This document shows positions 4,131 to 61,433 of a DNA stretch of 61,506 bases, in pieces. Position 1 is the stretch's first letter, and every line of letters begins with the position of its first letter. Position numbers and translations under genes: made by a program. Under the pieces are notes generated by a model. The model saw only the letters and a list, made by a program, of their open reading frames with translations. It made no database searches and had not been told where the DNA came from. Source of the stretch: Bacilli bacterium (GTDB taxonomy: Bacteria; Bacillota_I; Bacilli_A; RF39; UBA660); assembly GCA_045636225.1 (NCBI GenBank), contig JAZTXB010000029.1, forward strand, positions 1 to 61,506, in the 5' to 3' direction.

Positions 4131-5750
4131 TTAAGTTGCGTTTTCACTTAATGGCATTATACCACATTTATTACGATTTATAAAGTCCAGTGCCTCAAAA
4201 TATTTATCTTCACATTTAAAAATAACTCTTATATTTTTTTCTTCATCTATTACAATATCCTCAATTAATTCATCTATAAGGATTTTATTTAATTCTTTAA
4301 TTTCATTAAGTTTTTTTATTTCTTCCATCCATTTTGTATTATTATTTGAATTATTGTTGTTTGTATTTAGTTTTTCTTCAAGTTTGTTTTTCTCTACTTT
4401 TAATTCATTAATGCTTTTACTATATTCTGATGAATATTCCCAGTAATCTTCTTCAGAAATAATATTTTCCTTTAAATCATCTTTTAAATTTCTTTTTAAC
4501 ATAATTAAATCGTTTATTCTTATATTTATATTATCTATTTTTGTTTTTATTATTTCTAAATCATAATCTATTTCTGTTTGGTTTAATATTTTAGAAATAT
4601 TTACATCCAAATCTTTTATAAGCAATCTAAAATTGTTCATTACATTTATAACGTTTTCTTCTAAATCCTTTTTTCTATATGAATGAGCAGAGCAATTTTT
4701 ATGTTTTAAATACGAACTGCAGTAATAATATTCATAACCTTTTGATTTCCTTATTACCAAATTATTTTCACATTCATTACACCTTAAATGCCCTGCAAAT
4801 ACATCATACTCATTATTTTTATTAACTCTAATACCTCTTTCATATAATATTTCTTGTACTTTTTCAAAATCTTGTTTCGAAATAATAGGTTTATGATGAT
4901 TAGGTACAATTACCCAATTATCTGATTGAACTCGCATTGCTTTATGAATTTTATGACTTATTTTCTTCCTTACACCTTGAACTAAATCACCAGTATAACT
5001 TCTATTCTTTAAAATATCATCTAATTTTTTTGTGTCCCATTTTTTTATAGACTCATTAACTTCACATTTAAAATTGGCTTTTTCTATCTTGTGAACTCTT
5101 GGTGTAGCTATATTTAATGAATTCAACTCATTAACTACATCTTTTTTACTTTTACCAGATAAAATCATATTAAATATTTTTTTTATAACTTTCTCTGCCT
5201 CTTTATCAACTATAAACTTATGTTTATCATTTGGATTTCTAATATACCCATAAGGAGCAAACGAACCTATAAATTGACCTTTTTCTTTCTTGTTGTCTAA
5301 TACGCTTCTTACTTTGTTTGATATATCTCTAGCATACTCATCATTCATTAAGTTTTTTACTGGAACAATAACATCACTAACTGACTTTGGGTCTTTATAG
5401 CTATCTATATTATCGTTTACAGCAATAAATCTTATATTATATAAAGGAAAGATTTGCTCTATATAATTTCCTACTTCTATATAATTTCTTCCAAGTCTTG
5501 ATAAATCCTTTACAATTATACAATTTACTTTTCCATTTTTTAAATCACATAACATTCTTTGAAAATCCGGTCTATCAAAATTCGTACCAGAATATCCGTC
5601 ATCAGTATAATAAAAAATATCTTTCATATCATTATTCTTCTTTATAAAATCTCTAATTAAACTCTTTTGATTAGCAATACTATTTGATTCTGCTTTATCG
5701 CCATCTTCTGAAGATAATCTTAAATATACTGCTACATTCCATTTTTTCAT
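4131..5750 (-). CDS. large serine recombinase
   Basis: Resolvase catalytic N-domain (VAVYLRLSSEDGD...SNSIANQK), recombinase domain, Cys-rich zinc-ribbon region (CNECENN...YYCSSY..KNC), coiled-coil tail. Confidence 0.9.
   Translation of the reverse strand: MKKWNVAVYLRLSSEDGDKAESNSIANQKSLIRDFIKKNNDMKDIFYYTDDGYSGTNFDRPDFQRMLCDLKNGKVNCIIVKDLSRLGRNYIEVGNYIEQIFPLYNIRFIAVNDNIDSYKDPKSVSDVIVPVKNLMNDEYARDISNKVRSVLDNKKEKGQFIGSFAPYGYIRNPNDKHKFIVDKEAEKVIKKIFNMILSGKSKKDVVNELNSLNIATPRVHKIEKANFKCEVNESIKKWDTKKLDDILKNRSYTGDLVQGVRKKISHKIHKAMRVQSDNWVIVPNHHKPIISKQDFEKVQEILYERGIRVNKNNEYDVFAGHLRCNECENNLVIRKSKGYEYYYCSSYLKHKNCSAHSYRKKDLEENVINVMNNFRLLIKDLDVNISKILNQTEIDYDLEIIKTKIDNINIRINDLIMLKRNLKDDLKENIISEEDYWEYSSEYSKSINELKVEKNKLEEKLNTNNNNSNNNTKWMEEIKKLNEIKELNKILIDELIEDIVIDEEKNIRVIFKCEDKYFEALDFINRNKCGIMPLSENAT
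5305..5507. repeat. ~203-bp patch nearly identical to 6921..7123 (direct repeat between the two recombinase genes)
   Basis: Aligned by eye without gaps; includes a perfectly identical run of about 86 nt (attatcgtttacagcaataaatctta...tttcttccaa). Confidence 0.85.
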
Positions 5751-7399
5751 ATTGCTACCTCCATTTCATTTTTTATACTACTCAACACTCTTTCATACTC
5801 ATCTTGATATTTAAATCTAATTGATAAATCTCCACCCTCATGAACATAAATACAGTCAATTAAATCTTCTATAATTTCTCTTGATAAATTTTTTACTTTT
5901 TTATTCCTTCTAAAGTGTTCTATCCAATATTCTTCTTCCTTAATATCTCTTAAACTACTTTCAAGTTTTTCCTTATATATAATTATTTCATTTTTTTTAT
6001 TTTCAATTGTTTTTTCATAATCTTGAGAATAATCTAAAAACTCATCTTTGGATATTCTTCCTAGTTTCCAATCTTCATAAGAAGATTTTTTTAATCTTTT
6101 TAATTTTTCTATATCATTATTTAAATTTAAAATGTTTTTCTCGTATAATGATTTATTACATAAATTTGAACTTTCTTTTATTTTCTTAATTGTTTTTTCT
6201 ATATTTAAAACTGATTTTATTTGCATAATTATACTGTCAATTACCATTTTATCTAAATCGCTAGTTTTAATTTTATGAGGGGTACATTTTCCTGATGTGG
6301 TTTTATAATTCCTACAATAGAAATTTGACGAATTTCTACCCTCTCTTGTATCTTCCATCTTACACATACTTCTTCCACAATCAGCACATTTAATTTTATA
6401 TTTATATATTGTTAATTTCTCTGGCTTTTTCTTTTTATGATTTCTGTTTTTAATTATTTCTTGTATTTTATTAAAATCTTCTTCTTTTATTATTCCTTGA
6501 TGAGTTCCTTTAACAATTACCCATTCACTTTTTGGTCTATATATTTGTCTATGATCCTTGTAACTTATAGAACCAGTTCTATTCCATACAAGATTTCCAA
6601 TATATATTTCACTTGTAACCATTTTACCGATTGTAGATGTACTCCAATGATAAACTATTTCATCATCTTCAGCATTTAAACTGATTTTATATTTTTTTCT
6701 GCGTTGAACTTCTTTCCTACACAAAATACCATTATCATTTAGAAATTTAGCGATTTTTATATGACCATCTCCATCAACTGCCATTTTGAATATTTTTCTA
6801 ACAACAGGTGCTTCTTCTTCATCTATTATAAGTTGATGTATGTTTTCTGGATTCTTTTTATATCCGTAAGGACAAGTACCACCTACCCATTCTCCATTTA
6901 AAGATTTTGTCATAAGTACACTTCTTACTTTCTTTGATATATCTCTAGCATACTCATCATTCATTAAGTTTTTAAATGGGACTATAACATTATTTACAGA
7001 CTTTGGGTCTTTATAGCTATCCACATTATCGTTTACAGCAATAAATCTTATATTATATAAAGGAAAGATTTGCTCTATATAATTTCCTACTTCTATATAA
7101 TTTCTTCCAAATCTTGATAAATCTTTTACTATTACAGTATTTATATCGCCATTTACAAGAGCGTTAAACATTCTTTTAAACTCTGGTCTATTGAAAGTAG
7201 TACCAGAATATCCATCATCAGCATAATAATCCACTATTTCAATATTTTCTTCTTTTTTTAAATAGTAATTTATTATTTCTTTTTGATTAGCAATACTATC
7301 AGATTCTGCATTATCGCCATCTTCTGAAGATAATCTACAATATATTGCTACTTTCCAAATATTTTTTTCAATATGAACTTTTTTCTTTTTTCGAGGCAT
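5747..7399 (-). CDS. large serine recombinase (second, tandem copy)
   Basis: Same architecture as 4131..5750 (VAIYCRLSSEDGD..SDSIANQK; CADCGRSM...FYCRNY..GKC); its stop overlaps the next gene's start by 4 nt. Confidence 0.9.
   Translation of the reverse strand: MPRKKKKVHIEKNIWKVAIYCRLSSEDGDNAESDSIANQKEIINYYLKKEENIEIVDYYADDGYSGTTFNRPEFKRMFNALVNGDINTVIVKDLSRFGRNYIEVGNYIEQIFPLYNIRFIAVNDNVDSYKDPKSVNNVIVPFKNLMNDEYARDISKKVRSVLMTKSLNGEWVGGTCPYGYKKNPENIHQLIIDEEEAPVVRKIFKMAVDGDGHIKIAKFLNDNGILCRKEVQRRKKYKISLNAEDDEIVYHWSTSTIGKMVTSEIYIGNLVWNRTGSISYKDHRQIYRPKSEWVIVKGTHQGIIKEEDFNKIQEIIKNRNHKKKKPEKLTIYKYKIKCADCGRSMCKMEDTREGRNSSNFYCRNYKTTSGKCTPHKIKTSDLDKMVIDSIIMQIKSVLNIEKTIKKIKESSNLCNKSLYEKNILNLNNDIEKLKRLKKSSYEDWKLGRISKDEFLDYSQDYEKTIENKKNEIIIYKEKLESSLRDIKEEEYWIEHFRRNKKVKNLSREIIEDLIDCIYVHEGGDLSIRFKYQDEYERVLSSIKNEMEVAI
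6921..7123. repeat. partner of the 5305..5507 repeat
   Basis: See 5305..5507. Confidence 0.85.
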
Positions 7400-11828: not shown

Positions 11829-11860
11829 AGACTATTCAAATTGAATAGTCTTTTATATTT
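11827..11860. terminator. bidirectional rho-independent terminator
   Basis: AAAGACTATTCA-aat-TGAATAGTCTTT, 12-bp perfect stem, T-run after and A-run before. Confidence 0.8.
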
Positions 11861-13512
11861 TATCTTGTTTTTGGTTCATCACTATCGTCAAAAGGTGTTT
11901 TTATACTTTCTGTTGGTTGCCCCAACGTATCAAGTTTTTTTGCTATTTCTGTATAATATGTTTGAGCATTTACCATATTTATATAATTACCCTTTGTTGT
12001 ATCTGGTTCAAATTGTTTAAATATCATAGCACTTTGCAAAAATTCATGGACTTGTCTATGCCTTTCTGAACCTGCAAATCCAACAGTTTGCCTTGCATAC
12101 TTTCTAAATTGTGCCTCTATAAAAGAAACACGTTCAACATATTCTTCTGCTTTCTTATGAGCAGGAAGTTCAGATTCCATATATTTTTGTAATGCTATAT
12201 TAAATAATTGCTCTGTATGATATAAAAACATTTCTTCTTCAGATAATTCAGTTTCTTTTGGTTTTTCTTCTACTTTAACATCCATATCATCATAATACTT
12301 ACTAGATAAACAAACAGGTAAATTAGAATGTTCTAAATCCCCAAAATTAGATAATGAAGCCATCTTTGAAATAATATCATTTAATCCCTGAATATTTTCA
12401 TTACTTGTAATTTTAGAAAAATTACTTTGTAAATATTTCATAGTAGTCTTACTAGGCAATTCTATTGTTATAGTTCCATTGTTTTGTAATGGTGTTATTG
12501 AATGCTCTGTTATTTTACTCAATTTCATTACTTCTATTTTTTCATCTTCAGTTAAAGTTTGTAAAAACTCAGTATCATTTAAAATTAAATTAGCAACATA
12601 ACAATTTATTGCCTTTGAAGAAATTTTATTAAACCAATCGTTATAAGTAACATATTTAGTTCCACCATGACACACAGAATAATATCCACAATCTAAACCA
12701 GTAGGAATTGGACTTCCAAAAGTAGAAATCAACTCTGGTTTTTCCTGTTTTATTTCTTCTAAAATACTTAAAGTTTCGGTTAAATCATCTTCATAAACAT
12801 ATAGAATTGTTCTATCTAAATGCTTTTGTTCAATATCAGAATGTTCTTCACCTTTCATCTCAAAAGGGATTCCTTTTTCTATACATTTTTTTCTATACAA
12901 ATATAAAAATTCATATCTATTTTTACCATTAGGTGTATTTATATATATTCTGTGTTCTGTTACATCTCTATTATATTTTTCACCATTTTTATCAGTATCT
13001 TTACCATAAGGTAATTGATAAGTCTTACCAACTCTGTCACCTATTGCCTCTGATTCAGAAAGTATCTTATATGCAAATGAATTTTGTGGATAGACTTGCT
13101 TAAATAAAACACTTCCATTTGTTTCTCTAAATAATTCAAGAAGTCTGTCGTTTGAAATGTTTAAAAATTCCATTATTTCTAGTTCGCTAACACCACTATA
13201 ATATTGTGGCATTTCACTAATAAATTTAGCAATTCCTTTTTCATTAATTAAATCAACTATTTTTTTCTTTAATTCTATTCCTGTTAAACAAGAAAGTTTA
13301 ATTCTATCACTATCCAACATTTCTTCATCTATTGGTTTTTTTAAATCTGGCAATTTAATTTTTCTAGATGGATTATATTTTGTTATAAAAGAGTCATTAC
13401 ACATTTCTCTATAATATTTTAATAATTCAATTAATCCTTCTTCTTCCATTATTCTTATAGTGCCATTTTCTAATATTTGTCTTCTAACATTTTCGTTAGT
13501 CATATTTATCAC
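11860..13512 (-). CDS. hypothetical protein (550 aa), no family recognised
   Basis: Long uninterrupted ORF at the end of the cargo array. Central block RIYINTPNGKNRYEFLYLYRKKCIEKGIPFEMKG...DRTILYVYEDD is only vaguely reminiscent of HopA1-like effector-family proteins (unverified). Confidence 0.7.
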   Translation of the reverse strand: MINMTNENVRRQILENGTIRIMEEEGLIELLKYYREMCNDSFITKYNPSRKIKLPDLKKPIDEEMLDSDRIKLSCLTGIELKKKIVDLINEKGIAKFISEMPQYYSGVSELEIMEFLNISNDRLLELFRETNGSVLFKQVYPQNSFAYKILSESEAIGDRVGKTYQLPYGKDTDKNGEKYNRDVTEHRIYINTPNGKNRYEFLYLYRKKCIEKGIPFEMKGEEHSDIEQKHLDRTILYVYEDDLTETLSILEEIKQEKPELISTFGSPIPTGLDCGYYSVCHGGTKYVTYNDWFNKISSKAINCYVANLILNDTEFLQTLTEDEKIEVMKLSKITEHSITPLQNNGTITIELPSKTTMKYLQSNFSKITSNENIQGLNDIISKMASLSNFGDLEHSNLPVCLSSKYYDDMDVKVEEKPKETELSEEEMFLYHTEQLFNIALQKYMESELPAHKKAEEYVERVSFIEAQFRKYARQTVGFAGSERHRQVHEFLQSAMIFKQFEPDTTKGNYINMVNAQTYYTEIAKKLDTLGQPTESIKTPFDDSDEPKTR

Positions 13513-20501: not shown

Positions 20502-21788
20502 TTATATTAACTTATTTAATAATTCATTTAACTCCGGTATTTTGTGTATGTTGTGGTATCCATCAAAATGATTATAATACTTTAAATACATACCAATAGA
20601 ATTAGTATCTTCTATAAATCTTGTGAACTTTTCTTTATTGTTATCATCTTCATCAGAATAAAGACAATATTTATCACATTCCATGTTTTTCACAAAATCT
20701 AATGCTTCTTTTTTTACACAAGCTTGTTTTTTTACTTCTACTATATAATCAGTTCTGTTAGTTGGATAATCATAGACTGCTCCTGGAGCTACTGCAACAT
20801 ATCCTTTTGGTTCAAATTTCTTTTCTTCGCAGTATCTAACAAAATATGCATTTCCAATAGAATGAGCAATTACAATACTATTGTTATTTAAAGTACCATT
20901 GTCATAATAAAAATCTAATATTTCTCTAAACTTTTCATATTTAGATTCTGCTCTAATTGGAAATTCCGGCATTATTACATCTATTTCTTTTTGTCCAAAT
21001 ACTTCTTTTACATCTACTCCCCACATTCTTAATGTGTCGCCATTTAATGAGTGTAAAATAAATATATTTGATAAATTTTGTTTCTTTGCTGTTTCCATTT
21101 CCAAAATATTTAGGAATTCATCATTCATAGCAGCTGCATGAAACCCATTAATACTCTTTATACTTGCTCCTGCCATTTTACAAATAAATAATCCAGGTTC
21201 ATAATCCCAAGCCTTATCACTTCTAAATACTGCTCCATGAATTCTACCACTTGCAACGAATGCCATTGATACACATACTCCTCCAAAATTTCTTCTATTA
21301 GATGAGTATTTTCTCATTCTTTGCATACAAGGTAAATTATTATTTCCATCAATAGCATATAAAGCATTCTTTATTGGAACTTCGTTAACATTTATCTTTT
21401 TATCATTTAAGTATGCACCTGTTTCATCTGCATAATAAAATTCATTTATTCTTGGTAAACTTATAACACTCGCTACTGTTTTTCCATCTTTAACACAAGC
21501 AACTTGAATTCCCCATAATGGTAAGTTGTTCGCAAAATTAATTGTTCCATCAATAGGATCAATTATAAAACAATTATCTGACATTTTATTATTAGTGTTG
21601 TATTCTTCACTAACAATATCAAAAGTTGGATATTCTTTTTTGATTTCATTAATCAAATAATTTTCTATTTCTAAATCTAAATTAGTTATTAAATCGTTTT
21701 CTGCACCTTTACTTTTTACTTCAAAAGCATTTTCAGAAATCTTATTAGCATTTAATACTATTCTTTTTAAAAACTCTATTTCTTTCAT
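20502..21788 (-). CDS. fusion protein: inositol-monophosphatase-family domain + YdeN/RBBP9-like alpha/beta hydrolase domain
   Basis: IMPase motifs IIDPIDGTINF and WDYEPG in the N-half; IAHSIGNAY nucleophile elbow in the C-half; SD favours the ATG at 21788. Confidence 0.7.
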   Translation of the reverse strand: MKEIEFLKRIVLNANKISENAFEVKSKGAENDLITNLDLEIENYLINEIKKEYPTFDIVSEEYNTNNKMSDNCFIIDPIDGTINFANNLPLWGIQVACVKDGKTVASVISLPRINEFYYADETGAYLNDKKINVNEVPIKNALYAIDGNNNLPCMQRMRKYSSNRRNFGGVCVSMAFVASGRIHGAVFRSDKAWDYEPGLFICKMAGASIKSINGFHAAAMNDEFLNILEMETAKKQNLSNIFILHSLNGDTLRMWGVDVKEVFGQKEIDVIMPEFPIRAESKYEKFREILDFYYDNGTLNNNSIVIAHSIGNAYFVRYCEEKKFEPKGYVAVAPGAVYDYPTNRTDYIVEVKKQACVKKEALDFVKNMECDKYCLYSDEDDNNKEKFTRFIEDTNSIGMYLKYYNHFDGYHNIHKIPELNELLNKLI

Positions 21789-21804
21789 AATTATTCCTCT
21801 CAAT

Positions 21805-30979: not shown

Positions 30980-32386
30980 CTACCTTTCCATATTTTTATT
31001 TTTGGTTTTATTAAAATTCTTAACAATATTAACATTAACATTCCCATTTATAGGATAATCAGGTTCTCCCTCAAATTTATTATTGCAAGAAGTATATAAA
31101 GCCATATTCCCTTTTCCCAAATTTACATCTTTATATAGAACTCCTCTTTCGCTTCTAAATACAGGTCTATCCCAACTATCAATTCCAATAAATTGAATAT
31201 TTAATTCTTCAACTTTATTTTCGTTCTTTGTTTCAAATGTGTTTACTAAATTACCTCCAGAAATTACTGTATGATAATCTTTTAATGCTTTTTTTATATC
31301 ATTGTCATAATAATATCCATATCCCCAACTTAATTGATTATCTTTTATTTCATAATTAAAAGCTATAATATACTCTGGTTTTTCTTCTACTACTCTTTCT
31401 ACTAATGCAATTGGCTGTCCATTTCTATCGCCTTTATATATTAAAGTTTTATCATTATAATTTTCATATTCTTTACCAATAAAATCATTATACTCATATT
31501 GAATATAATCTTTATTATCATTTATCCATTGTTCTAGCATTTCATAAGTTGAATATCTTGGATTTCTATATTCTTCACTTTTCATAAATTTACCAGATAC
31601 ATAATCACAAAAATCATAACTTATATCACACTCTGGTTTATCAGATTTTTTTAACATATCTTGCAACAAATCGTATCCTAAAACAAAATTCAGATATGCC
31701 TTTTCGCTTGGCACATCTATATTTTTCATCATATATGTTTCATCTATATATTCTTTTATATTTTGCCTTAAACCTATTGTGTTTAACGATACTGTTTCAA
31801 TACTCTCTTTATTTTCAAAATCTTTTTTAGATTCATATATATTAACTAGATTTTCTTTATCATTATCAAAATTAACATCATCAGCTTCAATAATATATCC
31901 TTTGTATTCCATTGTTTCAAACATTGCTAGTCCCTCAAAATAATTCATAATATCTGGTGTATCTAACCCTGTATTGTTATCTAAAAATTCTTTTGTAATA
32001 CCATTATCTGCACAATATTGTAAATAATTTTGCACTCCATCTTTATAATCAATATCTTCTGGATATAACTCGTGTATTGAGTTCCATATACTATAATGAA
32101 CTTCTGGTGTCATATATCCAACTTTCCAGCCTTCTTCTAAAAGATTATAAATATAATAATCAAAATTATAGTCCCATTCTGGTACATTGAAATACCCCTC
32201 TGGACTATTTTTGGTATTCGGAGTAAACTCTATTGCCTCATCACTAGATGAATTACTAGCAAGAGTATTAGTTTCTTGTGTATCTGGTTTATACAAAATA
32301 TAATCTACTTTTTTATCTTGATGTTCCATACTATCTTTCAAGATTTCTTCTATTCTTAATTTTTCTTTTTCAACAAACTCTTTCAT
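30980..32386 (-). CDS. acidic, Tyr/Asn-rich soluble protein (468 aa), unknown
   Basis: No TM or signal peptide; embedded between VirB6-like and PrgI-like genes. Confidence 0.65.
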   Translation of the reverse strand: MKEFVEKEKLRIEEILKDSMEHQDKKVDYILYKPDTQETNTLASNSSSDEAIEFTPNTKNSPEGYFNVPEWDYNFDYYIYNLLEEGWKVGYMTPEVHYSIWNSIHELYPEDIDYKDGVQNYLQYCADNGITKEFLDNNTGLDTPDIMNYFEGLAMFETMEYKGYIIEADDVNFDNDKENLVNIYESKKDFENKESIETVSLNTIGLRQNIKEYIDETYMMKNIDVPSEKAYLNFVLGYDLLQDMLKKSDKPECDISYDFCDYVSGKFMKSEEYRNPRYSTYEMLEQWINDNKDYIQYEYNDFIGKEYENYNDKTLIYKGDRNGQPIALVERVVEEKPEYIIAFNYEIKDNQLSWGYGYYYDNDIKKALKDYHTVISGGNLVNTFETKNENKVEELNIQFIGIDSWDRPVFRSERGVLYKDVNLGKGNMALYTSCNNKFEGEPDYPINGNVNVNIVKNFNKTKNKNMER

Positions 32387-42405: not shown

Positions 42406-45400
42406 TTACCTTTCATAATCTCTTTTGGAAACTTGACTATCTACTATATCATTTTCTTTATCATCTATTATCTCTTTATCTTTTTCATTAAGATTAAGAG
42501 CTATATTTAATTCATCTAATCTTTTTGATTTTGTCTTTAATTCTTCCTCTTGTGGAAATGGTCTTGTTATTTCTTGTTTTGCATTTTCAAATTGTTTTTT
42601 GGTATCTTCTAAATTATTAATAGCATACTCTATTTTACTTTCTATACCATTTAAAACATTATCAATACGAGTAATATTACCATGCACATCAGCACCAAGT
42701 TCTACATCATAAGACAAATTATTTTTCATTCCTAAATGAAATTTACGATCAAAGCTATCAAAAGATAATATCATTTTAAATCCTTTATACTCACCAATTT
42801 CTATCGGCTCAGTATTAGTCATTGATTTACAAATATCAATTATTAACTGTCCTGCTTCAGCTTTTTCAGAATATTCATTACCACGAATAATCATTCCTTG
42901 AAAACCATCAATTTGCTTTGTATTTTGATTTAAATGTTCTACATCCTTTTTTATATTTTCAAGTCTATTTTCTAATCTTTTTATTTCAGTAGGATAAAAT
43001 TTTATAACTTTATCTTCCAATGCATAAATTTCACTCAAATGAGTTTGTTTTAATAATTTTAATTTAGCAACTTGTGTATCAAGTTCTGTCTTTTCAATTA
43101 TTAAAGGATTACCTGCAGCTAACGCTTTTATTTCTGCATAACTTAATGCAGTTTCATCTATATCTTCTGCAAATCTAACTGGTGTTTTTGAGGTCATTAT
43201 TTGTGAAATAAATCTTTGTTTATTTTCAACTAACTGATATAAATATGCATCAAAAGTTCCCTCTGTAACATATCTAAAAATATCAACTTCTTCGTTTTTA
43301 TTTCCCTGTCTTATTATTCTTCCACTTCTTTGAATTAAATCACTAGGTCGCCACGGACAGTCTAAATCGTGCAATGCAATTAGTCTATCTTGACAGTTTG
43401 TTCCTGCACCCATTTTTTGAGTAGAACCCATTAATACCCTTACTTGTCCTTTTCTAACCTTACTAAATAATTCTTGTTTTCTTATATCTGTATTAACATC
43501 ATGAATAAAAACTATTTCTTCTTCTGGTATTCCTTTATTTATTAGTTTATTTTTTATATCATCATAAACATTAAACTTACCATCATTATGTGGTGTAGAT
43601 AAATCGCAAAATAACAATTGAGCAGACTTATCATCTTCAGTTTTTTTCCAGATATCATAAATATTATTAGCACAAGTAGCTACTTTACTGTTTTCAAAAT
43701 CTTCTAACATCTCATTAGTTAATCTCTGGTCTAATGCTAATTTTCTTCCGTCATTTGTTATCTTTAACATATTATCTTCAGTAGAATTAACCATTTTATT
43801 TCTTACACGTTCAGCTCTATCAGCTAACTCTTTTACCATCTCTTTTTGAATTTCACTAGGTTGTATTACTATATTGTGATAATTAGCTTTCGGTACTGGT
43901 AAATTTAACATTTCTGCAGTTTGTATATCAGCAACTTCTTTAAACATTGCCATAAGTTCTGGTAAATTATAGAACTTTGCAAATCTAGTTTTTGCTCTAT
44001 AACCAGTTCCTTCCGGACTCAATTCTATCGCTGTTGTTGTTTCACCAAAAGTAGAAGCCCATGCGTCAAAATGTTGCAAATTTCTTTTTTCTAATTCACT
44101 ATATTGTAAATATCTTTGCATTGTATATAATTCAACCATTGAATTACTAATTGGTGTTCCAGTCGCAAAAATTATCCCTTTACCACCTGTAATTTCATCA
44201 AGATAACGACATTTCATATATAAATCTGAACTTTTTTGTGCTTCTGTTTGTGCTATACCACCAACATTTCTCATCTTTGTATATAAAAACAAATTCTTAT
44301 AATAATGAGCCTCATCTACAAATATTCTATCTACACCTAATTCTTCAAAAGTGATAACATCATCTTTTCTACTGGTATCATTAAGTTTAGCTAATTTTGC
44401 CTCTAAACTTTTCTTTGTCTTTTCTAATTGTTTAATAGAAAATCTTTCGCCATTACTATTTTTTAAATCTTGAATACCAAAAGTTATCTCATCTATTTCT
44501 TTTTGAAGAATTGCTTTTTGTCTTTCTGCAGACATTGGTATTTTTTCAAATTGAGAATGACTTATTATAACTGCATCATAATCACCTGTTGCAATTCTTG
44601 AACAAAACTTTTTACGATTAGCAGTTTCAAAATCCTTTTTAGTTGTTACTAAAATATTTGCACTCGGATATAATTGCAAAAATTCTTGACCAAATTGTTC
44701 TACTATATGATTTGGTACAACAAATAATGATTTGTTACATAACCCTAATCTTTTTGACTCCATTGCAGCTGCAACCATTTCAAAAGTTTTTCCTGCACCA
44801 ACTTCATGAGCTAATAAGGTATTTCCACCATATAGAATTCTTGCAATTGCATTAACTTGATGTGGTCTTAATTTTATTTCTGGATTTATTCCATCAAAAA
44901 CTATATGTGAACCATCATATTCTCTCGGTCTAATAGAATTAAATTTTTCATTATAAATTCTTGTTAATCTTTCACGTCTTTCTGGATCTTTCCATACCCA
45001 TTCTTCAAAAGCTAATTTAATTTGTTCTTGTTTAGCTTGTGCTATTGCAGTCTCTTTTTTATTTAATTCCGCAACTCTTTTACCATTCTCATCTTCATAA
45101 TAATCGTAAATTCTTACATCTTTTAAATTAAGTGTATCTTCGATTATTTTATAAGCATTTGCTCTACCTGTACCATAAGTGTTATATGATTTTACATTAT
45201 ATTTATCATAGTTTTTTCCCTCTATATTCCATTGAGAAGTACTTTCCATATAATGAACTTTTATATTTCTACTTGTATGCCAAGATGGATTTAATAAGTA
45301 ATCAATAAATACTTTTATATCTTCTGGTGGTATCCAAGTAGTTCCTAATCTAACACTAATTTCACTTGCACTTAAATCTTTAGGTTGAACATCTTTAAGG

Positions 45401-48400
45401 TATTTAACATTAACCAAAAACCTATCATCTGTTTCTGCAAATTTTTCTGCTATTTTTAATTTTTCTCTAACATTTCCTGATAAATACTCATCAGCAGTAA
45501 CCCAATTATTACACTCACCATATTCAGGGACATTAAATATCTCACCCTCTAATTCTTTTAACATTTTATCCATATCCATTCCACATAGACTTTGCATAAA
45601 TGTTATATCTACTCTTGCTTTTTCAGAAAGTGAAACTACAAGTGCTTCATTTGCACTATCTACTTGTAATATCTTTGTTTTTGGTCTTATAGTTCTTTTG
45701 GTAAACATATCTGCTTTTCTTGCAAGATTTCCGTTTTCATCTAATATTTCTAATGAGCATAATAAATAATAGCTTGAATCATTAGAAAAAGCAGAGTTGT
45801 TTCCTCTGCTATTAATTAACCCATATTTCTTGCTAAAAGCATCATATAAGCGATTTAATTTATCTTGTTGATATTTTATATCTTCTTCTGGATAATCCTC
45901 TGTTTGATACTCTATAAGCGTTCTGACGCAATCTCTAATTTCAATTAGCCCTTTAACTCTATTTTCAGTAGTCATAGCTAATTCTTGTGGATACATTCTA
46001 CTATTTTCTCTGAAATAAATTTTATCATCAACAATTGTATATGAAAAATTCTTAACATTATAATCTGCAGGAATAGATAAATCTTCTTCCTCGCCTATAT
46101 CATCAATTTCATATTCTTTTACTTCAGCGTGTATGTTTGTGATTGCTTCATTTAGCATACTTTCTAAATCTTGACTATCATTTGCTATACAAGCAGAATC
46201 ATAACCAAATCTTGTAGAAATCATTTCCATATTTCCCATTATCATTTCTGGATTATCTACAAAATACTTATTCATTTTGATACCATCTTCATTAGTATCA
46301 AGATATACCCAATCTGGTTCAATATCGGTTATTGAATCTCTTTTTTGCAGGAAGATAATATCTGATGTTACTTCTGTTCCTGCATTAGCTTTGAAAGTAT
46401 TATTAGGTAATCTAATAGCTCCTAATAAATCTGCTCTTTGTGCAATATATCTTCTAACACTAGGATTTTCTTTATCTAATGTCCCTTTAGAAGTTATAAA
46501 CGCAACAACTCCACCTGGTCTTACTTTATCAAGTGTTTTTGCAAAAAAGTAATCGTGTATTAAAAATTTATGTTTGTCATATTTTTTATCTAAAACTTTA
46601 AAATCCCCAAATGGAACATTACCTACTGCAACATCAAAAAAACTATTAGGTAAATTAGTATCTTCAAAGCCTTGAACAGCAATAGACGATTTTTGATATA
46701 ATTGTCTAGCTATTCTTCCACTGATTGAATCAATTTCTACTCCATATATTTTACATTCTGCTAATGAGTCTGGTAACATACCAATAAAATTACCTGTACC
46801 ACAACTTGGTTCTAATATATTCCCAGTTTTTAAGCCCATATTTTCAAGAGCTTTATACATTGATTTAATAACTATTGGTGGAGTGTAAAAAGCTGTTAAA
46901 GTAGAACTTCTTGCTTCTGAATATTCTTTTTCATCTAATATTTCTTTTAAGATAAAATATTCTCTACTCCATGAATTGTCTTTATCATCAAATGCTTGTG
47001 GTAATCCACCCCAACCTACATATTGAGATAGTATTTCTTGTTCTTCTAGCGTTGCAAATCTATTTTCTTCTTCACATTTTTTTAATACTTTAATTGCCTC
47101 TAAATTTCGAGCAAATTTTTCTCGTGGTGTTCCATAACCTAAATTGTTATTTTCTATTCTAAATTGGCTACGATCAGAATTTTTAATTTCTGGGTGTATA
47201 TCAAAAGTATTTACTTTATTTTTAATTTTCTTTTCAAAACTAGGTACAAATTCTTTTTCTTCTTTTTCAGCTAGTATTGATTTAATTTTATCTAACTTTT
47301 CAACTCTAAAAATTGGAAAACCCACTGAATTATTAAAAGTTATATCTTTTAAATTTACTTCATCATTAGTGATATTTTCAATTTTGTATTTTCTATTTTC
47401 TAAATCTAATTCTTTTCCAATAAATTCTTTTTCTTCTGTATTCTTATCAGATTTTTCTTCTAAAATACTTTCATATTTTTTTGAATATTCTTTTATTTTT
47501 TCTAATTCATTATCAGTAATTAATTCAACTTGTCCATTTTCGTTATATACAAAAATATCATTGAAAATAAAATCATAAAATTCCTTTCCTATCCAAGAAT
47601 TATCTTTATCAGTAGCAATAAGATTTTCATTTTCATCATATTTTAATTCTATATCATTTATTTTATGTTTATTTAAAATATGATATATCAATCCAATTTC
47701 GCCATCTTCTTTATCATAAAATTCAACAATTGTTTCTTCTTTAATTAAATGGTCATTACATGGATTTTCTCGCACTTTTCTATCAAATTCTTCTCTGTCC
47801 ATTTCTTTATTAAATAATGGCCATTGATAGTCATATAATCTAACAACTTCATCATCAAAAGCTAATATTTCATACTCATCAGCACCTATATAGACTTTAT
47901 CGCCCAAGTGATATTCATATTCTATAATTTTTTCTGGTTCTTCTTCAGAAACATCATTATCTATTTGTAATGACAGTTCTTTTTCCTTTTCTACAAGCTC
48001 TCTTTTTTGTTCTTCTTTTTCTAACCAATTAGGATATTCATTTAACTCTTTTGAATTTAAAAATCTTTCTTCTTTTATTAAATAAGTAATTCTATCAGCT
48101 AAATAATTCCATTTCAAAAGTTTTTCTGCTCTATTTTCAAAATACCCTCTGTATAATAAAAGTCCTTTTGAACTACTTTCATATCCTATACCAGAACCTT
48201 TTACCGTATATGTCGCTCCACCAAGCCCATATAAATTTTTTAAATATTCTGCATTATCTTTACTTGATAAACTTTTTTGGAATTGCTCATATATCCTATA
48301 CTTTGTTTCAGTATGTTTTTCCTGTAAATATTTATCAATAAACTCTTGTGAAAATACCAAATCAACACTTTGTTCACTGTTTTCATTTTCATCAATTAAA

Positions 48401-49992
48401 GTTAATTGTTGGCTTACTGATGGTAATGTTTTAGTTTTTGTATTAAGTTGATGAAGTAATATCATTGAATCATAATGATATGTTAAATCTTCCCAACTAA
48501 TAAAAGTTTCTGTATCTCGTGATAAAAAATTACCTTTCCAAAATAAAAGTCCATTATCAAATGCCTTATAACCATACATATTATCGTTAATGATAATTCC
48601 AGTATAATCAGAATTAAAAGCATTCTTAATGAACTTTGCTCTTTTACTAATATCTTTTTCAATTTCAAAATAATTTATAATATCTTTATTTGATACCTTT
48701 AAATGTGGTGTTGTACTTAATATTTGATTAACCTTTTCATCAACTACCACATAAGGATGTTTGTTGCTATTTTTATCATAAAAATTTAAGCGTAAATCAA
48801 TTCGTTCGTTACTATCTCCTCTGCTGTCATCTGCAAGTTGTTCATCAACCCTACCCATTTCATTTGGTCTGTTGCTTTCAATTCCTCTGTGATGTTCTCC
48901 TTGATTTTCATTTGAGATACTATCTCTTTCACTCGCATCTCTGCTTGTTGTTGTATCTCTATCAAATGCTCTGTCAATAGGTCTTTCATCAATAATGTTG
49001 TGTATAAAGGTTTCTTCTCTTTCTTCAAATAATTTAACCTCATTATTGCGTATTTCCCTTTCACTTGAAGTTGCTTGTCTTGACTCGGCAACATTAGGTC
49101 TGGAAGTTCGTAGTCCCCCTGTCTTGTGTAAGTTATCTTCATAATTACCACTCCTTTCTGCAATATTCTTGCTTTCATCTATATCATATTCTTTTTGTTT
49201 TTCTCTTTCAAATGTGCGAATTTTATTTATTTCATTAATTCGTAAATTTTTAATAGTTGTATAGATTTCTCTTAATCCCATTTCACTTATCTCACTTGTA
49301 GCTAGTCCTAATCTTGTGATAGTATCATAACTATTAAAATTTAATATGCTTTTAAAATCCTCACTTTCAAAGTAATTATTTGGATTAATTCCACATCTTT
49401 TCATAATAACAAAAGCAATACTATTAGATATTGTTTCTTTCAATAATAATTCTACATTGAGTTCATCTAATTCTTCTAATAAACTATTATCTCTATAAAA
49501 CATTAAATCTGATAAATAATCTTGTAAATTATCTTCAGCAAGTATCTTAGATACGGATATTATCGCTGATGGCAAAGTTTCTTTTGCTTCTAACTCCCCA
49601 TATCTGTTCTCAAGTGATTCTATAATATCCTGCTCATAAGGTTTAGTGACTGACCATAATCTAAAACTTTTACCAAACTTACTATTTGTATCAGCAATAT
49701 CAAATACGTGTTTTAAAATTGTTTCGCCATTTTCATCTGAAATAAGTGCAATTCCTTTAGAACCTTTATTAACCCATCTACCAACATTTTTATTCCAAGT
49801 TTCTATTTCTGCACATGCTACTGCAGTAGGTCTTTGAGCATATATTAAAACTTGGTCATTAAACGGATATTTATAGTTCATAGCTGCACACTCTAAAAAC
49901 GACATCCACTCATTTGGATCTCTACTAATATCTGTTAAAGTTTGACCATATAAATCAGTTATAAGTCTTAATTTCCCTGCCACTTTTTTCAC
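42406..49992 (-). CDS. polyvalent conjugative-element protein: ArdC-N-like domain + N6-adenine DNA methyltransferase + SNF2/DEAH helicase (2,528 aa)
   Basis: ArdC-N-like block (aa ~40-95). MTase motif [11 protein letters not shown] (aa ~1060) and motif IV GNVPFG (aa ~1124). Helicase motif [10 protein letters not shown] (aa ~1728), motif [12 protein letters not shown] (aa ~1891), motif [13 protein letters not shown]. Confidence 0.9.
48786..49142 (-). CDS. tnpV: TnpV-family protein encoded in the +1 frame inside the polyvalent-protein gene
   Basis: Nested same-strand ORF from the track. From the internal ATG: [71 protein letters not shown]. Own SD AAAGGAGTG ~8 nt upstream. Confidence 0.7.
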
Positions 49993-50004: not shown

Positions 50005-50337
50005 TCAATTAGTATTATCTTTTTTTAATGACTCTCTAACTTTAACTAAAACTTCATAATAATTTGTTTCAACTTCAAATTCATCAATACTATTAAACAA
50101 TATATATACTAAATCTTCTGCTTCATTTTGGAATAATCGTATATATACTAACTCTTCTTTTTGTTCAGTTTCATAAGGAATACTATATCTTAATAATTTA
50201 GTTTTTAACTTATCTGCTTTTTCTTTTAATAATTCATCTTCTCGTTCTATATATATACTTAAGATTTCTAGCAAAAAATTAAAACTTCTTATATTAAATT
50301 TCAAATGAAACGGTGGTCTTCTTCTTTTATGTGCCAT
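50005..50337 (-). CDS. hypothetical protein (110 aa)
   Basis: ORF only. Confidence 0.55.
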   Translation of the reverse strand: MAHKRRRPPFHLKFNIRSFNFLLEILSIYIEREDELLKEKADKLKTKLLRYSIPYETEQKEELVYIRLFQNEAEDLVYILFNSIDEFEVETNYYEVLVKVRESLKKDNTN

Positions 50338-50775: not shown

Positions 50776-51129
50776 TTAACCTCTTTTCTCATTTTTTAAA
50801 GTTTTATATTCTTCTTTCTTATGTTTTAGATATTCCAACACAAGTTTTGCAGTATTATTTGAATATTCTTTTTCTAATATTTCTCTTTTTAATAAATCTT
50901 CAAATTTACTTGTATTATAAAAATCTGTACACCTTTTATTTTCCTTAATTTTTTGTCTTAAAAAATTGGCATATATGTTATTATCTTTGATACTACTTCT
51001 TATATTTTTTATTGCCTCATCATAAAATTCAGGTTCTAAATTATCATAATAATCTTTAATAAACGGATTTAAACCACAATTAATTTCTTCTTTTTTAAAG
51101 ATTTGTTTTAACTTTACAATACACCTCAT
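50776..51129 (-). CDS. hypothetical protein (117 aa)
   Basis: ORF only. Confidence 0.5.
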   Translation of the reverse strand: MRCIVKLKQIFKKEEINCGLNPFIKDYYDNLEPEFYDEAIKNIRSSIKDNNIYANFLRQKIKENKRCTDFYNTSKFEDLLKREILEKEYSNNTAKLVLEYLKHKKEEYKTLKNEKRG

Positions 51130-55719: not shown

Positions 55720-56340
55720 TTAATTTTCCATTGGATTTGTATAATGAATTTTCAATCTATAACCTAATATTTGTCCTTTATAAATTACTTCAATAGGATC
55801 AAAACCCAAAATATTTACAGTATCTGAAAAAGCAATATCAAATCCTGCTTTCATACATTCATCATAAGTAGTATATTCTACTTGTGCCATAAGTCTTTCA
55901 TATTCTTCATCTACTTGTTTTATTTCTTCTTGGATAACTTCCTTTTCTTCTGGTTCTTCTTGTTTAACTTCAATGTCTTTAAAATTATCTTTTTTTTCTT
56001 CAGTTTTACTATATTCAAGTTCAGAATCATTAGACTTATTTTCCTTTTGTTCTTCTTTCTGTGGAGAATTAACTACTTCTGATTTTTGTTCTTCTTTTTG
56101 TGAAATAACAGATTTGGTTTCTGTTGTTGTTTTTTTTGATTCTTCTTGTTGTTCTTGTTTTTCTGGTTCTTCTTGTTTAACTTCAATTTCTGAAATATTT
56201 CCAACATCTTCTGTAATAACCTCCATTTCATTTGAATTTTTGTTAATATTCTCAATTTGCTTATTTTTGTTTTCAAATTTGAATATCACAAAAAAACTTA
56301 GTGCTAATAAACTAGCAACTATAAAAACATATTTTTTCAT
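55720..56340 (-). CDS. membrane-anchored E/K/Q-rich protein (206 aa)
   Basis: N-terminal TM/signal anchor, long low-complexity EEQK region, ~60-aa structured C-terminus. Confidence 0.6.
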   Translation of the reverse strand: MKKYVFIVASLLALSFFVIFKFENKNKQIENINKNSNEMEVITEDVGNISEIEVKQEEPEKQEQQEESKKTTTETKSVISQKEEQKSEVVNSPQKEEQKENKSNDSELEYSKTEEKKDNFKDIEVKQEEPEEKEVIQEEIKQVDEEYERLMAQVEYTTYDECMKAGFDIAFSDTVNILGFDPIEVIYKGQILGYRLKIHYTNPMEN

Positions 56341-60329: not shown

Positions 60330-61433
60330 TTATTTTATTGTTGTTTTTTCATTATTATTATTTTTATAAAGTGTATATTCATCTATTACTTTTTCTATAC
60401 AACTACAAATTTTTAATAGTTGGCTTTTTGCACTATAATTGCCATTATTTTTATTAAGAGTAACAACAATATAATCATCAGAGGCAAATACGATTCCACT
60501 ATCATTTACCACATTTGGTGTCCAACCTGATTTATGAGCTGAATCATAATGCTCCATACCTTCTTTAATATAATTATAATCAGCATTCGTAAGTAGCTCA
60601 AATAAAATTTTTCCATTTTCTGTTTGATCTTTATATTTATAAATTTCTTGCCAAACAAGAGCCATACTTCTCGCATCAATGCGTCCCCATTTAGCTCCAT
60701 AATTTAAATATAATTCTGTACAACCTAGTTCTTTCAAAAATTCATTATAACCTTCATTATAAAATCTATCATGTATCATATAATAAGCAACATTATCACT
60801 CAAATGCAATGTATAATAAAACAAATCATTTAATGAATACGAAGTTCCAGATTCTTTATTTTTTAAAATACCTGAACCATCTCTTCTAAATCTTTCTTCA
60901 TATACTTTCAATTCATCTAATGATCCATTACCTTTGTCCATTTCTTTAAACGCGTAAAGAGAAACAGCAACTTTAATAGTACTTGCAGTTTGAAATGATT
61001 CATCAATATTATATCCAAAAGACATACCATCTTTTAAATTAATAGCAATAAATGCACAATCCGATCCAAAACCATCAATATAACCATTTATTTTAGATTG
61101 TAATTCCGAGCTTATTTCAAAATCAGTATTATAAGTAGAAACATACTTATCACTTAATGAAATATTAGAAATATCTACTTCTTTTCCAAAAATATCCTCT
61201 TCCTTCAATGATTCACTAGCTTCTACTAAAGATTCTACTTCAAGTATATCAGGTTCTTCAAAAAATTCAGTTGAAGAAATTTCATTTGTATAATTATCTT
61301 TTTGTGGTTGTTTATGAATAGCTGAACATGATGTAAGAAGACATAATGCAGCACCTAAAAAGGCCAATTTAGTTCTTTTGAATTTATTTTTGTTTTTATT
61401 TATATAATTAATTTTAATTTGTTTCATTTCCAC
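60330..61433 (-). CDS. class-A beta-lactamase-fold serine hydrolase lipoprotein
   Basis: Lipobox LLTSC; SxxK (ASTIKV), SDN (LSDNVAY), KSG (HKSGWT) motifs. Confidence 0.75.
   Translation of the reverse strand: MEMKQIKINYINKNKNKFKRTKLAFLGAALCLLTSCSAIHKQPQKDNYTNEISSTEFFEEPDILEVESLVEASESLKEEDIFGKEVDISNISLSDKYVSTYNTDFEISSELQSKINGYIDGFGSDCAFIAINLKDGMSFGYNIDESFQTASTIKVAVSLYAFKEMDKGNGSLDELKVYEERFRRDGSGILKNKESGTSYSLNDLFYYTLHLSDNVAYYMIHDRFYNEGYNEFLKELGCTELYLNYGAKWGRIDARSMALVWQEIYKYKDQTENGKILFELLTNADYNYIKEGMEHYDSAHKSGWTPNVVNDSGIVFASDDYIVVTLNKNNGNYSAKSQLLKICSCIEKVIDEYTLYKNNNNEKTTIK

Follow-up and report, generated by a model that had tools for sequence, protein, structure and literature searches.

The window analyzed here is a 61,506-nt stretch of a Bacilli bacterium genome (GenBank assembly GCA_045636225.1, contig JAZTXB010000029.1, positions 1–61,506) and represents an integrative conjugative element (ICE) of the Firmicute type. 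Its minus strand carries a giant open reading frame (ORF; 42406–49992, 2528 residues, GTG start), here called the host, and within it, in the +1 frame relative to the host, a complete gene of the TnpV family (48786–49142; 118 codons plus TAA). We consider it likely, with a probability of about 0.8, that this tnpV is functional and that the giant polyvalent-protein gene reads through it, using the shifted frame as a linker. Ribosomes coming from the start of the giant gene would translate the host frame through tnpV and thereby produce a disordered linker rich in E, R, D, N, and S that joins an ArdC-like header to the remaining protein. TnpV would be made separately by initiation at its own Shine–Dalgarno sequence and ATG, with the giant mRNA and/or a shorter transcript from an embedded sigma-70-like promoter as template.

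Layout of the overlap

The ORF list places a small ORF (48786–49178, minus strand, 130 residues, ATG) wholly within 42406–49992 but in another frame, closed upstream by a TAG at 49181–49179. The tnpV start itself is the ATG at 49142–49140, the A of which is the second base of host codon 284 (TAT; 49992 − 49142 = 850, and 850 mod 3 = 1). It is preceded by the Shine–Dalgarno sequence AAAGGAG (49151–49157, minus strand), which ends 8 nt before the ATG and is read as E-R-S in the host frame. The two genes share 354–357 nt on the same strand, corresponding to host codons 284–403 (48784–49143), a part of the disordered inter-domain linker. The folded N-terminal header resembling ArdC (host residues 1–257; 49222–49992) is located upstream, and a further folded domain (host residues ~404–520; 48433–48783) begins directly after the tnpV stop. 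A first-pass annotation made from the sequence alone had described this arrangement: a nested same-strand ORF out of the host frame, an ATG on the second base of a host codon, a Shine–Dalgarno sequence of its own, the TAG just upstream of 49178, and the letters of the 118-residue product. The ORF list and translations agree with it on each count, including an 18-residue host segment that is simply the shifted reading of a 17-residue TnpV segment.

The overlap also contains a G5 homopolymer early in tnpV (CAGGGGGAC; 49119–49125, minus strand). A 1-nt slip at this run would join the header to TnpV and truncate the giant protein, making it a possible hotspot for frameshifted database variants or for phase variation.

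The nested product belongs to the TnpV family

The family assignment of the first-pass annotation is borne out by Pfam: the nested product matches PF14198 over the whole profile (positions 1–111 of 111), with an E-value of 1.1e-36 and a score of 125.6 bits (cut-off 27). There are 763 database homologues, and those listed carry PF14198. With 118 residues, and encoded on an element with two large serine recombinases, the protein fits the small (about 110–125 residues) mobile-element-encoded type. Family and full-length match are shared with TnpV of Tn4451/Tn4453 and with the PF14198 proteins of integrative mobilizable elements (IMEs), and so is the location on a mobile element alongside large serine recombinases (4131–7399 in the window). 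Unlike the free-standing TnpV genes described so far, the present one is fully enclosed by a 7.6-kb ORF in another frame, and its codon usage is restricted so that no stop ever arises in the enclosing frame. Its organization thus differs from that of the free-standing tnpV of Tn4451, organization being no criterion for the protein family.

An AlphaFold2 (AF2) model built from 28 homologues reaches a mean predicted local distance difference test (pLDDT) score of 82 and consists of an N-terminal beta-hairpin followed by five helices; TnpV is a folded, constrained protein. A scan of TnpV against NCBIfam gave no family match, a sequence search of the PDB gave no match, and a Foldseek search of the model against the PDB gave no meaningful fold match. 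As to its biochemical role, the literature offers conjecture only: TnpV of Tn4451 has been postulated to be Xis-like (PMC3158075), and in Faecalibacterium it “may be involved in transfer” of MOBQ2 IMEs (PMC12084326).

Free-standing tnpV genes were met on a Salmonella IncHI2 plasmid (L082, CP123681.1), on Campylobacter coli pCOS502 (L083), and on Streptococcus gallolyticus pSGG1 (L084), where they neighbor resistance genes that come from Gram-positive bacteria (aac(6')-Ie/aph(2'')-Ia, aph(3')-VIIa, and tet(O/W/32/O)); Enterobacteriaceae plasmids are among the carriers. On pCOS502, tnpV overlaps the end of a large serine recombinase gene by 4 nt.

Conservation of the nested arrangement

A genome scan with one genome per species returned at least 586 loci encoding relatives, of which the best 80 (33–88% identity) were examined. 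They come from Clostridia, Bacilli, “Tenericutes” metagenome-assembled genomes, Lachnospiraceae, Ruminococcus, Paenibacillus, Dehalobacter, and Desulfosporosinus. Together with the window, 8 plasmid or metagenome copies, and 36 IMG/VR loci, they make up a set of ~125 embedded copies. Each of the 80/80 loci has a full-length TnpV (38–93% identical to that of the window), located ~840 nt from the start of the gene and in the +1 frame in every case. When the first 700 host residues are compared, even homologues with only 36% identity can be aligned straight across the overlap in the host frame. Across the ~125 copies the tnpV frame is kept at full length despite divergence to 34–38% identity, and both frames are kept open, as an overprinted pair proposed in the first-pass annotation would have it. 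The recurrence of the layout in ~125 independent assemblies also means that it is not a sequencing indel, the artefact that the same annotation had named as a way to be wrong.

The initiation signals of tnpV are conserved as well. A homologous ATG is found in 79/80 loci, and AAAGGAG lies 8–12 nt upstream of it in 55/80, with near-variants in most of the others. A conserved “ER” in the alignment of host proteins is the shadow of this Shine–Dalgarno sequence.

In an IMG/VR sample centered on TnpV, 36/80 loci (~45%) are embedded. Their host-frame ORFs span 490 to >1,700 codons, and an ArdC-like domain lies directly upstream in 33/36. One IMG/VR locus (L122; 3808–8262) has a host ORF of 1,484 codons that begins ~65 codons upstream of tnpV and includes no ArdC-like domain; it retains the promoter-like motif described below, the Shine–Dalgarno sequence (GAAGGGAG), and tnpV, and a rearrangement breakpoint seems to lie directly in front of the cassette. 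A Cohnella plasmid locus (L087) that appeared to be a free-standing control with 0 stops was rejected as such and counted among the embedded copies, because its tnpV proved to lie within a host-frame ORF of >1,400 codons.

The host frame is depleted of stops

No host-frame stop occurs over the TnpV span in 81/81 sequences, compared with 7–28 (mean 17.3) in the third same-strand frame, and the same holds for all ~125 embedded copies, including the 8 plasmid or metagenome and the 36 IMG/VR loci. In five free-standing plasmid tnpV genes the corresponding frame contains 14, 4, 3, 4, and 4 stops; in 44 free-standing IMG/VR genes it contains 0–10 (median 4) and is stop-free in only 2.

Any TnpV codon with a final T produces a host-frame stop if the next codon begins with AA, AG, or GA, and codons of the latter kind (K, N, S/R, D, E) are very frequent in TnpV. 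Embedded genes have T-ending codons at 0/3,004 positions before AA/AG/GA codons versus 905/6,213 positions elsewhere, while free-standing tnpV has T at 29/212 positions before such codons. Permuting synonymous codons within embedded genes gave on average 2.9 host-frame stops, and the probability of a stop-free frame averaged 0.059, which is a conservative estimate because the embedded genes are already depleted in T-ending codons. For the tnpV of the window, a stop-free host frame was obtained in 2.8% of trials. The permutation and the third-frame counts (mean 17.3 versus 0) both uphold the view of the first-pass annotation that the double open frame is not a chance pattern. Judged from these comparisons, the host frame is strictly kept free of stops over tnpV.

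A conserved restart codon with a Shine–Dalgarno sequence near the tnpV stop was not found, any candidate being present in only 14/80 loci and at scattered, non-homologous positions; a terminator scan around the overlap found none. Since there is no conserved restart and purifying selection on the host frame resumes after the tnpV stop (see below), continuous translation of the host frame across tnpV is the simplest interpretation.

Selection on the two frames

Selection was estimated with home-made scripts, including an OLGenie-style separation of site classes in 31 phylogenetically independent pairs. For TnpV, omega (dNN/dSN) is 0.21 (confidence interval [CI] 0.17–0.26), and for the host over the overlap (dNN/dNS) it is 1.03 (CI 0.87–1.27); the Nei–Gojobori (NG86) ratio of nonsynonymous to synonymous divergence (dN/dS) for TnpV is 0.215. 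As the 31 pairs had been chosen on the overlap itself, the windowed Nei–Gojobori analysis was repeated with 26 pairs chosen only on the N-terminal domain and led to the same conclusion. In these 26 pairs, host residues 1–240 show a host-frame dS of 0.40–0.56 and a dN/dS of 0.05–0.26. At residues 261–280, over the promoter-like region, dS has already fallen to 0.22 with a dN/dS of 0.60, and at residues 281–400 it lies at 0.07–0.115 with a dN/dS of 0.9–1.8. From residue 401 onward, right after the tnpV stop, dS returns to 0.62–0.80 (0.53 in residues 521–540) and dN/dS to 0.2–0.4. The dip in synonymous divergence proposed as a check in the first-pass annotation is thus present as a ~5-fold drop exactly over the overlap, the edges of the trough coinciding with the start (codon 284) and stop (codon 403) of tnpV.

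Site patterns agree with these estimates. Nucleotide diversity at TnpV codon positions 1, 2, and 3 is 0.41, 0.32, and 0.54, and counted in host codons, conservation is highest at position 3 and lowest at position 1. Amino acid diversity over the overlap is 0.70 in the host frame, 0.67 in the third, non-coding frame, and 0.52 in the TnpV frame. Selection on the host frame at the amino acid level was not detected within the overlap (omega 1.03), where only stop avoidance is detectable. By these substitution patterns the pair is asymmetric: one constrained protein and one linker that would need only to stay open. Purifying selection together with the conserved ATG and Shine–Dalgarno sequence supports tnpV as a living gene under ordinary purifying selection.

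A promoter-like element within the host codons

About 40 nt upstream of the tnpV ATG, inside the host ORF, lies a sigma-70-like motif (49183–49211, minus strand) with a −35 hexamer TTGAAA (49211–49206), a 17-nt spacer, and a −10 hexamer TATGAT (49188–49183), together matching the consensus at 10/12 positions. An anchor sequence, AATCGCACATTTG, is found in the same codon phase in 76/80 loci; TTGnnn is present in 72/76 of these, followed exactly 17 nt later by a hexamer of the TATGAT, TACAAT, TATAAT, or CACAAT type. In 76/76 loci the second base of the −10-like hexamer is A and the sixth is T, and the spacer is almost without information. Position and spacing are kept in genomes of 26–59% GC, with the motif 25–46 nt upstream, and a score of at least 10/12 is reached in 45% of the upstream segments versus 2.2% of background windows from the same genes. 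The invariant T at position 6 is the third base of a host Asp/Asn codon, and TTG persists even in loci with Ile in place of Phe in the host protein; both features point to selection at the nucleotide level. The motif is probably a promoter for tnpV set within host coding sequence, and tnpV may be transcribed separately instead of relying on the giant mRNA alone.

The 13-nt block AATCGCACATTTG (49209–49224 in the window, minus strand) overlaps the −35-like TTG and extends upstream of it, and is conserved including host third-codon positions. Its conservation exceeds what a −35 box alone would need and could reflect an operator or an UP-like element.

Origin of the overlap

The first-pass annotation had offered two alternatives: either TnpV is expressed from inside the giant gene, or the giant gene arose by reading through a former tnpV. 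The comparative evidence supports expression within the giant gene and a linker read through tnpV together; only the word “former” does not stand, the gene still being maintained. An older free-standing tnpV cassette would most likely have been enclosed by a read-through fusion of an ArdC-like gene with a methylase–helicase gene, and the host linker would be the younger, overprinted frame. We moderately favor such a capture over de novo birth in the linker because TnpV is folded and constrained, the host reading is disordered and unconstrained, and the full expression cassette has been retained. In a neighbor-joining tree of 129 dereplicated TnpV sequences (47 free-standing sequences were put in; a smaller tree with 5 free-standing controls was uninformative), the embedded or free state needs 7 changes versus 33 with shuffled labels, and 30/38 dereplicated free-standing sequences fall in one large group. 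With so few changes of state, embedding looks old and rare, with a few possible escapes.

The reverse course, in which TnpV was born de novo by overprinting in the linker of an already fused giant gene and the free-standing genes are later escapes, seems unlikely, though it survives better than the other alternatives. In its favor, embedded copies are abundant (~45% of the TnpV-centered sample), a few lineages of free-standing genes fall within embedded ones, the neighbor-joining tree has an ambiguous midpoint root, and a disordered linker would readily tolerate a new frame. Known overprinting pairs usually have the disordered frame as the younger one, and here it is the TnpV frame that is well folded and constrained (pLDDT 82, omega 0.21) and the host frame that is disordered and unconstrained. 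The large group of free-standing sequences is moreover separate, and the nested gene keeps a complete set of promoter-like motif, Shine–Dalgarno sequence, and ATG, as a captured gene would.

Alternative explanations for the layout

It is improbable that the long ORF is a reading artefact over three separate genes, that is, an ArdC-like gene, tnpV, and a methylase–helicase gene starting downstream. RefSeq and ENA gene calls do list a “TnpV protein” and a truncated giant gene that starts 75–190 nt or more downstream, leaving the N-terminal domain uncalled, but the host frame is continuous for 1,400–3,227 codons in those same records, and the annotated starts of the giant gene differ between near-identical loci. 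Separate genes would also leave several observations unexplained: the 0 stops in the host frame of ~125 embedded copies versus a median of 3–4 in free-standing tnpV, an ArdC-like ORF without a stop codon of its own, a start with a Shine–Dalgarno sequence near the tnpV stop in only 14/80 loci and at non-homologous positions, and purifying selection on the host frame that resumes at residue 401.

Programmed +1 ribosomal frameshifting, which would make a fusion of the ArdC header and TnpV with TnpV as its C-terminal domain, is a still more doubtful proposal. Three proteins of 393–399 residues (P0074, P0081, and P0084) join the header to the PF14198 domain and end at the tnpV stop, and the G5 run of the window is a conceivable slip site. 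The fusions switch frame at three different places, however: before the Shine–Dalgarno sequence, at “SSGGQ|MRLRYLK”, and late in the gene. Such differing junctions fit random indels or assembly errors, and most likely these three proteins stem from events of this kind that broke the giant gene. No conserved slippery site was seen, and a conserved Shine–Dalgarno sequence and ATG, unnecessary for frameshifting, are predicted by independent initiation. That the tnpV frame is the decaying relic of an overrun gene, open only because the event is recent, has nothing in its favor except that long same-strand overlaps are rare a priori in bacteria, and it is hardly credible for a frame at full length in ~125 copies diverged to 34–38% identity, with an omega of 0.21 and a conserved ATG, Shine–Dalgarno sequence, and promoter-like motif.

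Several points weigh against a functional tnpV inside a translated giant gene, or at least against parts of that reading. At one locus (L010, 1325–1345) the tnpV ATG is replaced by ATT/ATA (AATAATTATTATAACT) with the remaining frame and Shine–Dalgarno sequence intact, indicating either a rare non-canonical start or a recent loss. A sigma-70-like match alone means little, and the region holds fewer such sites than shuffled sequence. The motif also overlaps conserved host residues (RTF...Y-D/N), and its conservation could be partly at the protein level; the invariant third-position T argues against this without proving it. TnpV dS is 0.48 compared with 0.75–0.98 in the flanks, a difference of uncertain effect size as the pairs were picked on the overlap, which biases distances in the overlap downward. 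The neighbor-joining tree used to look into the direction of origin is based on a 115-residue protein, carries no support values, and has an ambiguous midpoint root. Finally, expression of either product, meaning translation of each frame across the overlap as well as use of the internal promoter, is something we infer from sequence comparison.

The nesting of a probably functional tnpV in what would be a read-through host gene suggests a more general and more tentative idea, to which we give slightly less than even odds: polyvalent giants may be assembled by reading through a living gene, with tnpV keeping its promoter, ribosome-binding site, and protein, and the same 357 nt serving as promoter-driven gene, as mRNA, and as linker. 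If true, TnpV dosage would be mechanically coupled to, or in competition with, translation of the anti-restriction giant, and nearly half of all TnpV genes would exist in a hidden nested state that annotation pipelines split wrongly.

Comparison with known overlapping genes

Same-strand nested genes as such are already known. Lambda Rz1 in Rz as well as phiX174 B in A and E in D are same-strand nested genes with their own ribosome-binding sites, and both products of each pair are functional. These overlaps occur in phage genomes, where size is strongly constrained, and of the two frames the nested one is usually taken to be younger. The tnpV overlap resembles them in being same-strand, out-of-frame, and fully nested with its own ribosome-binding site, and differs in that tnpV seems to be the older frame and the one under constraint, with the host frame as a by-product that is only kept from closing. 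A Firmicute parallel is comS, reportedly a small same-strand, out-of-frame gene with its own start within the very large srfA-B of Bacillus subtilis. ComS is said to have 46 residues, to be taxonomically narrow, and to lie inside a folded domain of a non-ribosomal peptide synthetase. The nested tnpV is likewise wholly enclosed by a very large Firmicute gene in a different frame, but encodes 118 residues of a widespread Pfam family that also exists free-standing, and it lies in a disordered host linker.

Out-of-frame coding in bacteria has been described for GndA in gnd (PMC11230408) and for antisense overlapping genes of Pseudomonas (PMC8850804). As in these cases, coding in an alternative frame of an annotated gene was assessed here with tests for purifying selection. 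Unlike them, mostly short or antisense and lineage-restricted, the present overlap covers 354 nt on the same strand and is conserved across many genera. One passage of a preprint calls co-directional prokaryotic overlaps of >60 bp essentially nonexistent apart from some instances (bioRxiv 10.1101/724807). No published description of the nesting of tnpV was found in the literature searched, which lacks most subscription journals. What is new here is a long, deeply conserved overlap on a bacterial conjugative element, a nested partner that is a recognized family also found free-standing, an enclosing frame merely kept open as a linker, and a promoter-like motif and Shine–Dalgarno sequence both written in host codons.

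Long same-strand overlaps of bacterial genes are considered almost nonexistent outside phages, and at 354 nt, deeply conserved and statistically clean, the tnpV case departs from that expectation. A recognized Pfam partner and ~125 natural replicates make it an unusually tractable system for the study of frame sharing. The enclosing frame appears to be an unconstrained newcomer, suggesting that polyvalent proteins can be built by tunneling through a neighboring gene, and the layout ties TnpV physically to anti-restriction and establishment machinery, which offers a handle on its role.

In six records (L081, NZ_OY725736.1; L087, NZ_CP051681.1; and the ENA metagenome scaffolds L089–L092), a “TnpV protein” and a 5'-truncated “SNF2-related” giant gene are called. 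The ArdC-like header is uncalled there, the gap sometimes being filled by spurious antisense ORFs, and the host ORF is continuous over 1,400–3,200 codons. Other pipelines call the giant ORF and drop tnpV. With split or truncated calls of this kind, the nesting is present in many public records but hidden there, and domain architectures and TnpV gene contexts in databases are systematically wrong for these widespread gut-Firmicute ICEs.

The giant gene and its conjugative element

The giant protein carries SNF2-rel_dom (residues 1724–1900, E = 5e-10), ResIII, and Helicase_C above the Pfam cut-offs and a weak Methyltransf_25 match at residues 1059–1124 (20 bits against a cut-off of 27). A homologue on an ENA metagenome scaffold (L089) carries LPD11, N6_Mtase (PF02384), SNF2, and Helicase_C. 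The dyad of a methylase and a SWI2/SNF2 helicase is thus represented by the helicase domains of the window protein and by N6_Mtase and LPD11 in homologues. On the basis of its helicase domains, the methyltransferase match, and the relative with LPD11 and N6_Mtase, the giant protein belongs to the polyvalent proteins of conjugative elements. Its architecture consists of an ArdC-like header, a disordered linker, a conserved middle domain, a methyltransferase region, and an SNF2-type helicase.

An AF2 model of host residues 1–560 (16 homologues) shows pLDDT values of about 85–96 for residues 1–257 and 74–90 for a second folded domain at residues 420–520. Between these well-folded domains, residues 258–401 have very low confidence (about 26; about 25–29 over host codons 284–403), and the host segment over tnpV is accordingly predicted to be disordered. 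The top Foldseek match of the header model in the PDB is ArdC of R388 (6SNA) with a probability of 0.96–0.99, a weak E-value of 0.025–0.054, and a template modeling score of 0.36–0.44. No ArdC-N Pfam match was present in the header at E < 0.01; its secondary structure (helices, then four strands) fits the published description of ArdC-N. An ArdC-N header typically stands at the start of polyvalent proteins (Iyer, Burroughs, Anand, de Souza, and Aravind, 2017; PMC5512222). The present protein shares with those of that study the giant multidomain form, the location on a conjugative element, and the methylase/SWI2-SNF2 dyad, and its header may likewise be of the ArdC-N type. It differs from them (PMC5512222) in that the linker behind the header is the shifted reading of another gene; the terms TnpV, “frameshift”, “overlapping”, and “Tn4451” have 0 occurrences in that paper.

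The architecture of the giant gene varies among relatives (L017, L018, L029, L033, L036, L037, L039–L041, L048, L050, L063, and L067; P0083, P0106, P0116, P0118, and P0120). Some host ORFs among these end after 530–1,280 codons, the methylase–helicase part presumably being a separate gene, and some proteins are without the domain at host residues 415–530 and still keep the linker that shadows TnpV. All of these variants still read through tnpV.

All genes of the element in the window lie on the minus strand. They encode ParA/ParB, a SpaA/thioester adhesin with a sortase, the giant protein, DUF6664, a Toprim protein, a MobA/VirD2 relaxase, a VirD4 coupling protein, a VirB4-like ATPase, a CHAP hydrolase, and the two large serine recombinases. 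Several ORFs, likewise on the minus strand, have no Pfam match at the thresholds used: 11860–13512 (550 residues), 30980–32386 (468 residues), 50005–50337, 50776–51129, and 55720–56340. Two further genes look like cargo or flanking genes: one within the element for an inositol-monophosphatase-family protein of 433 residues (20502–21803, minus strand), and one near the end of the window beyond parA/parB for a Beta-lactamase2-family protein of 367 residues (60330–61433, minus strand).

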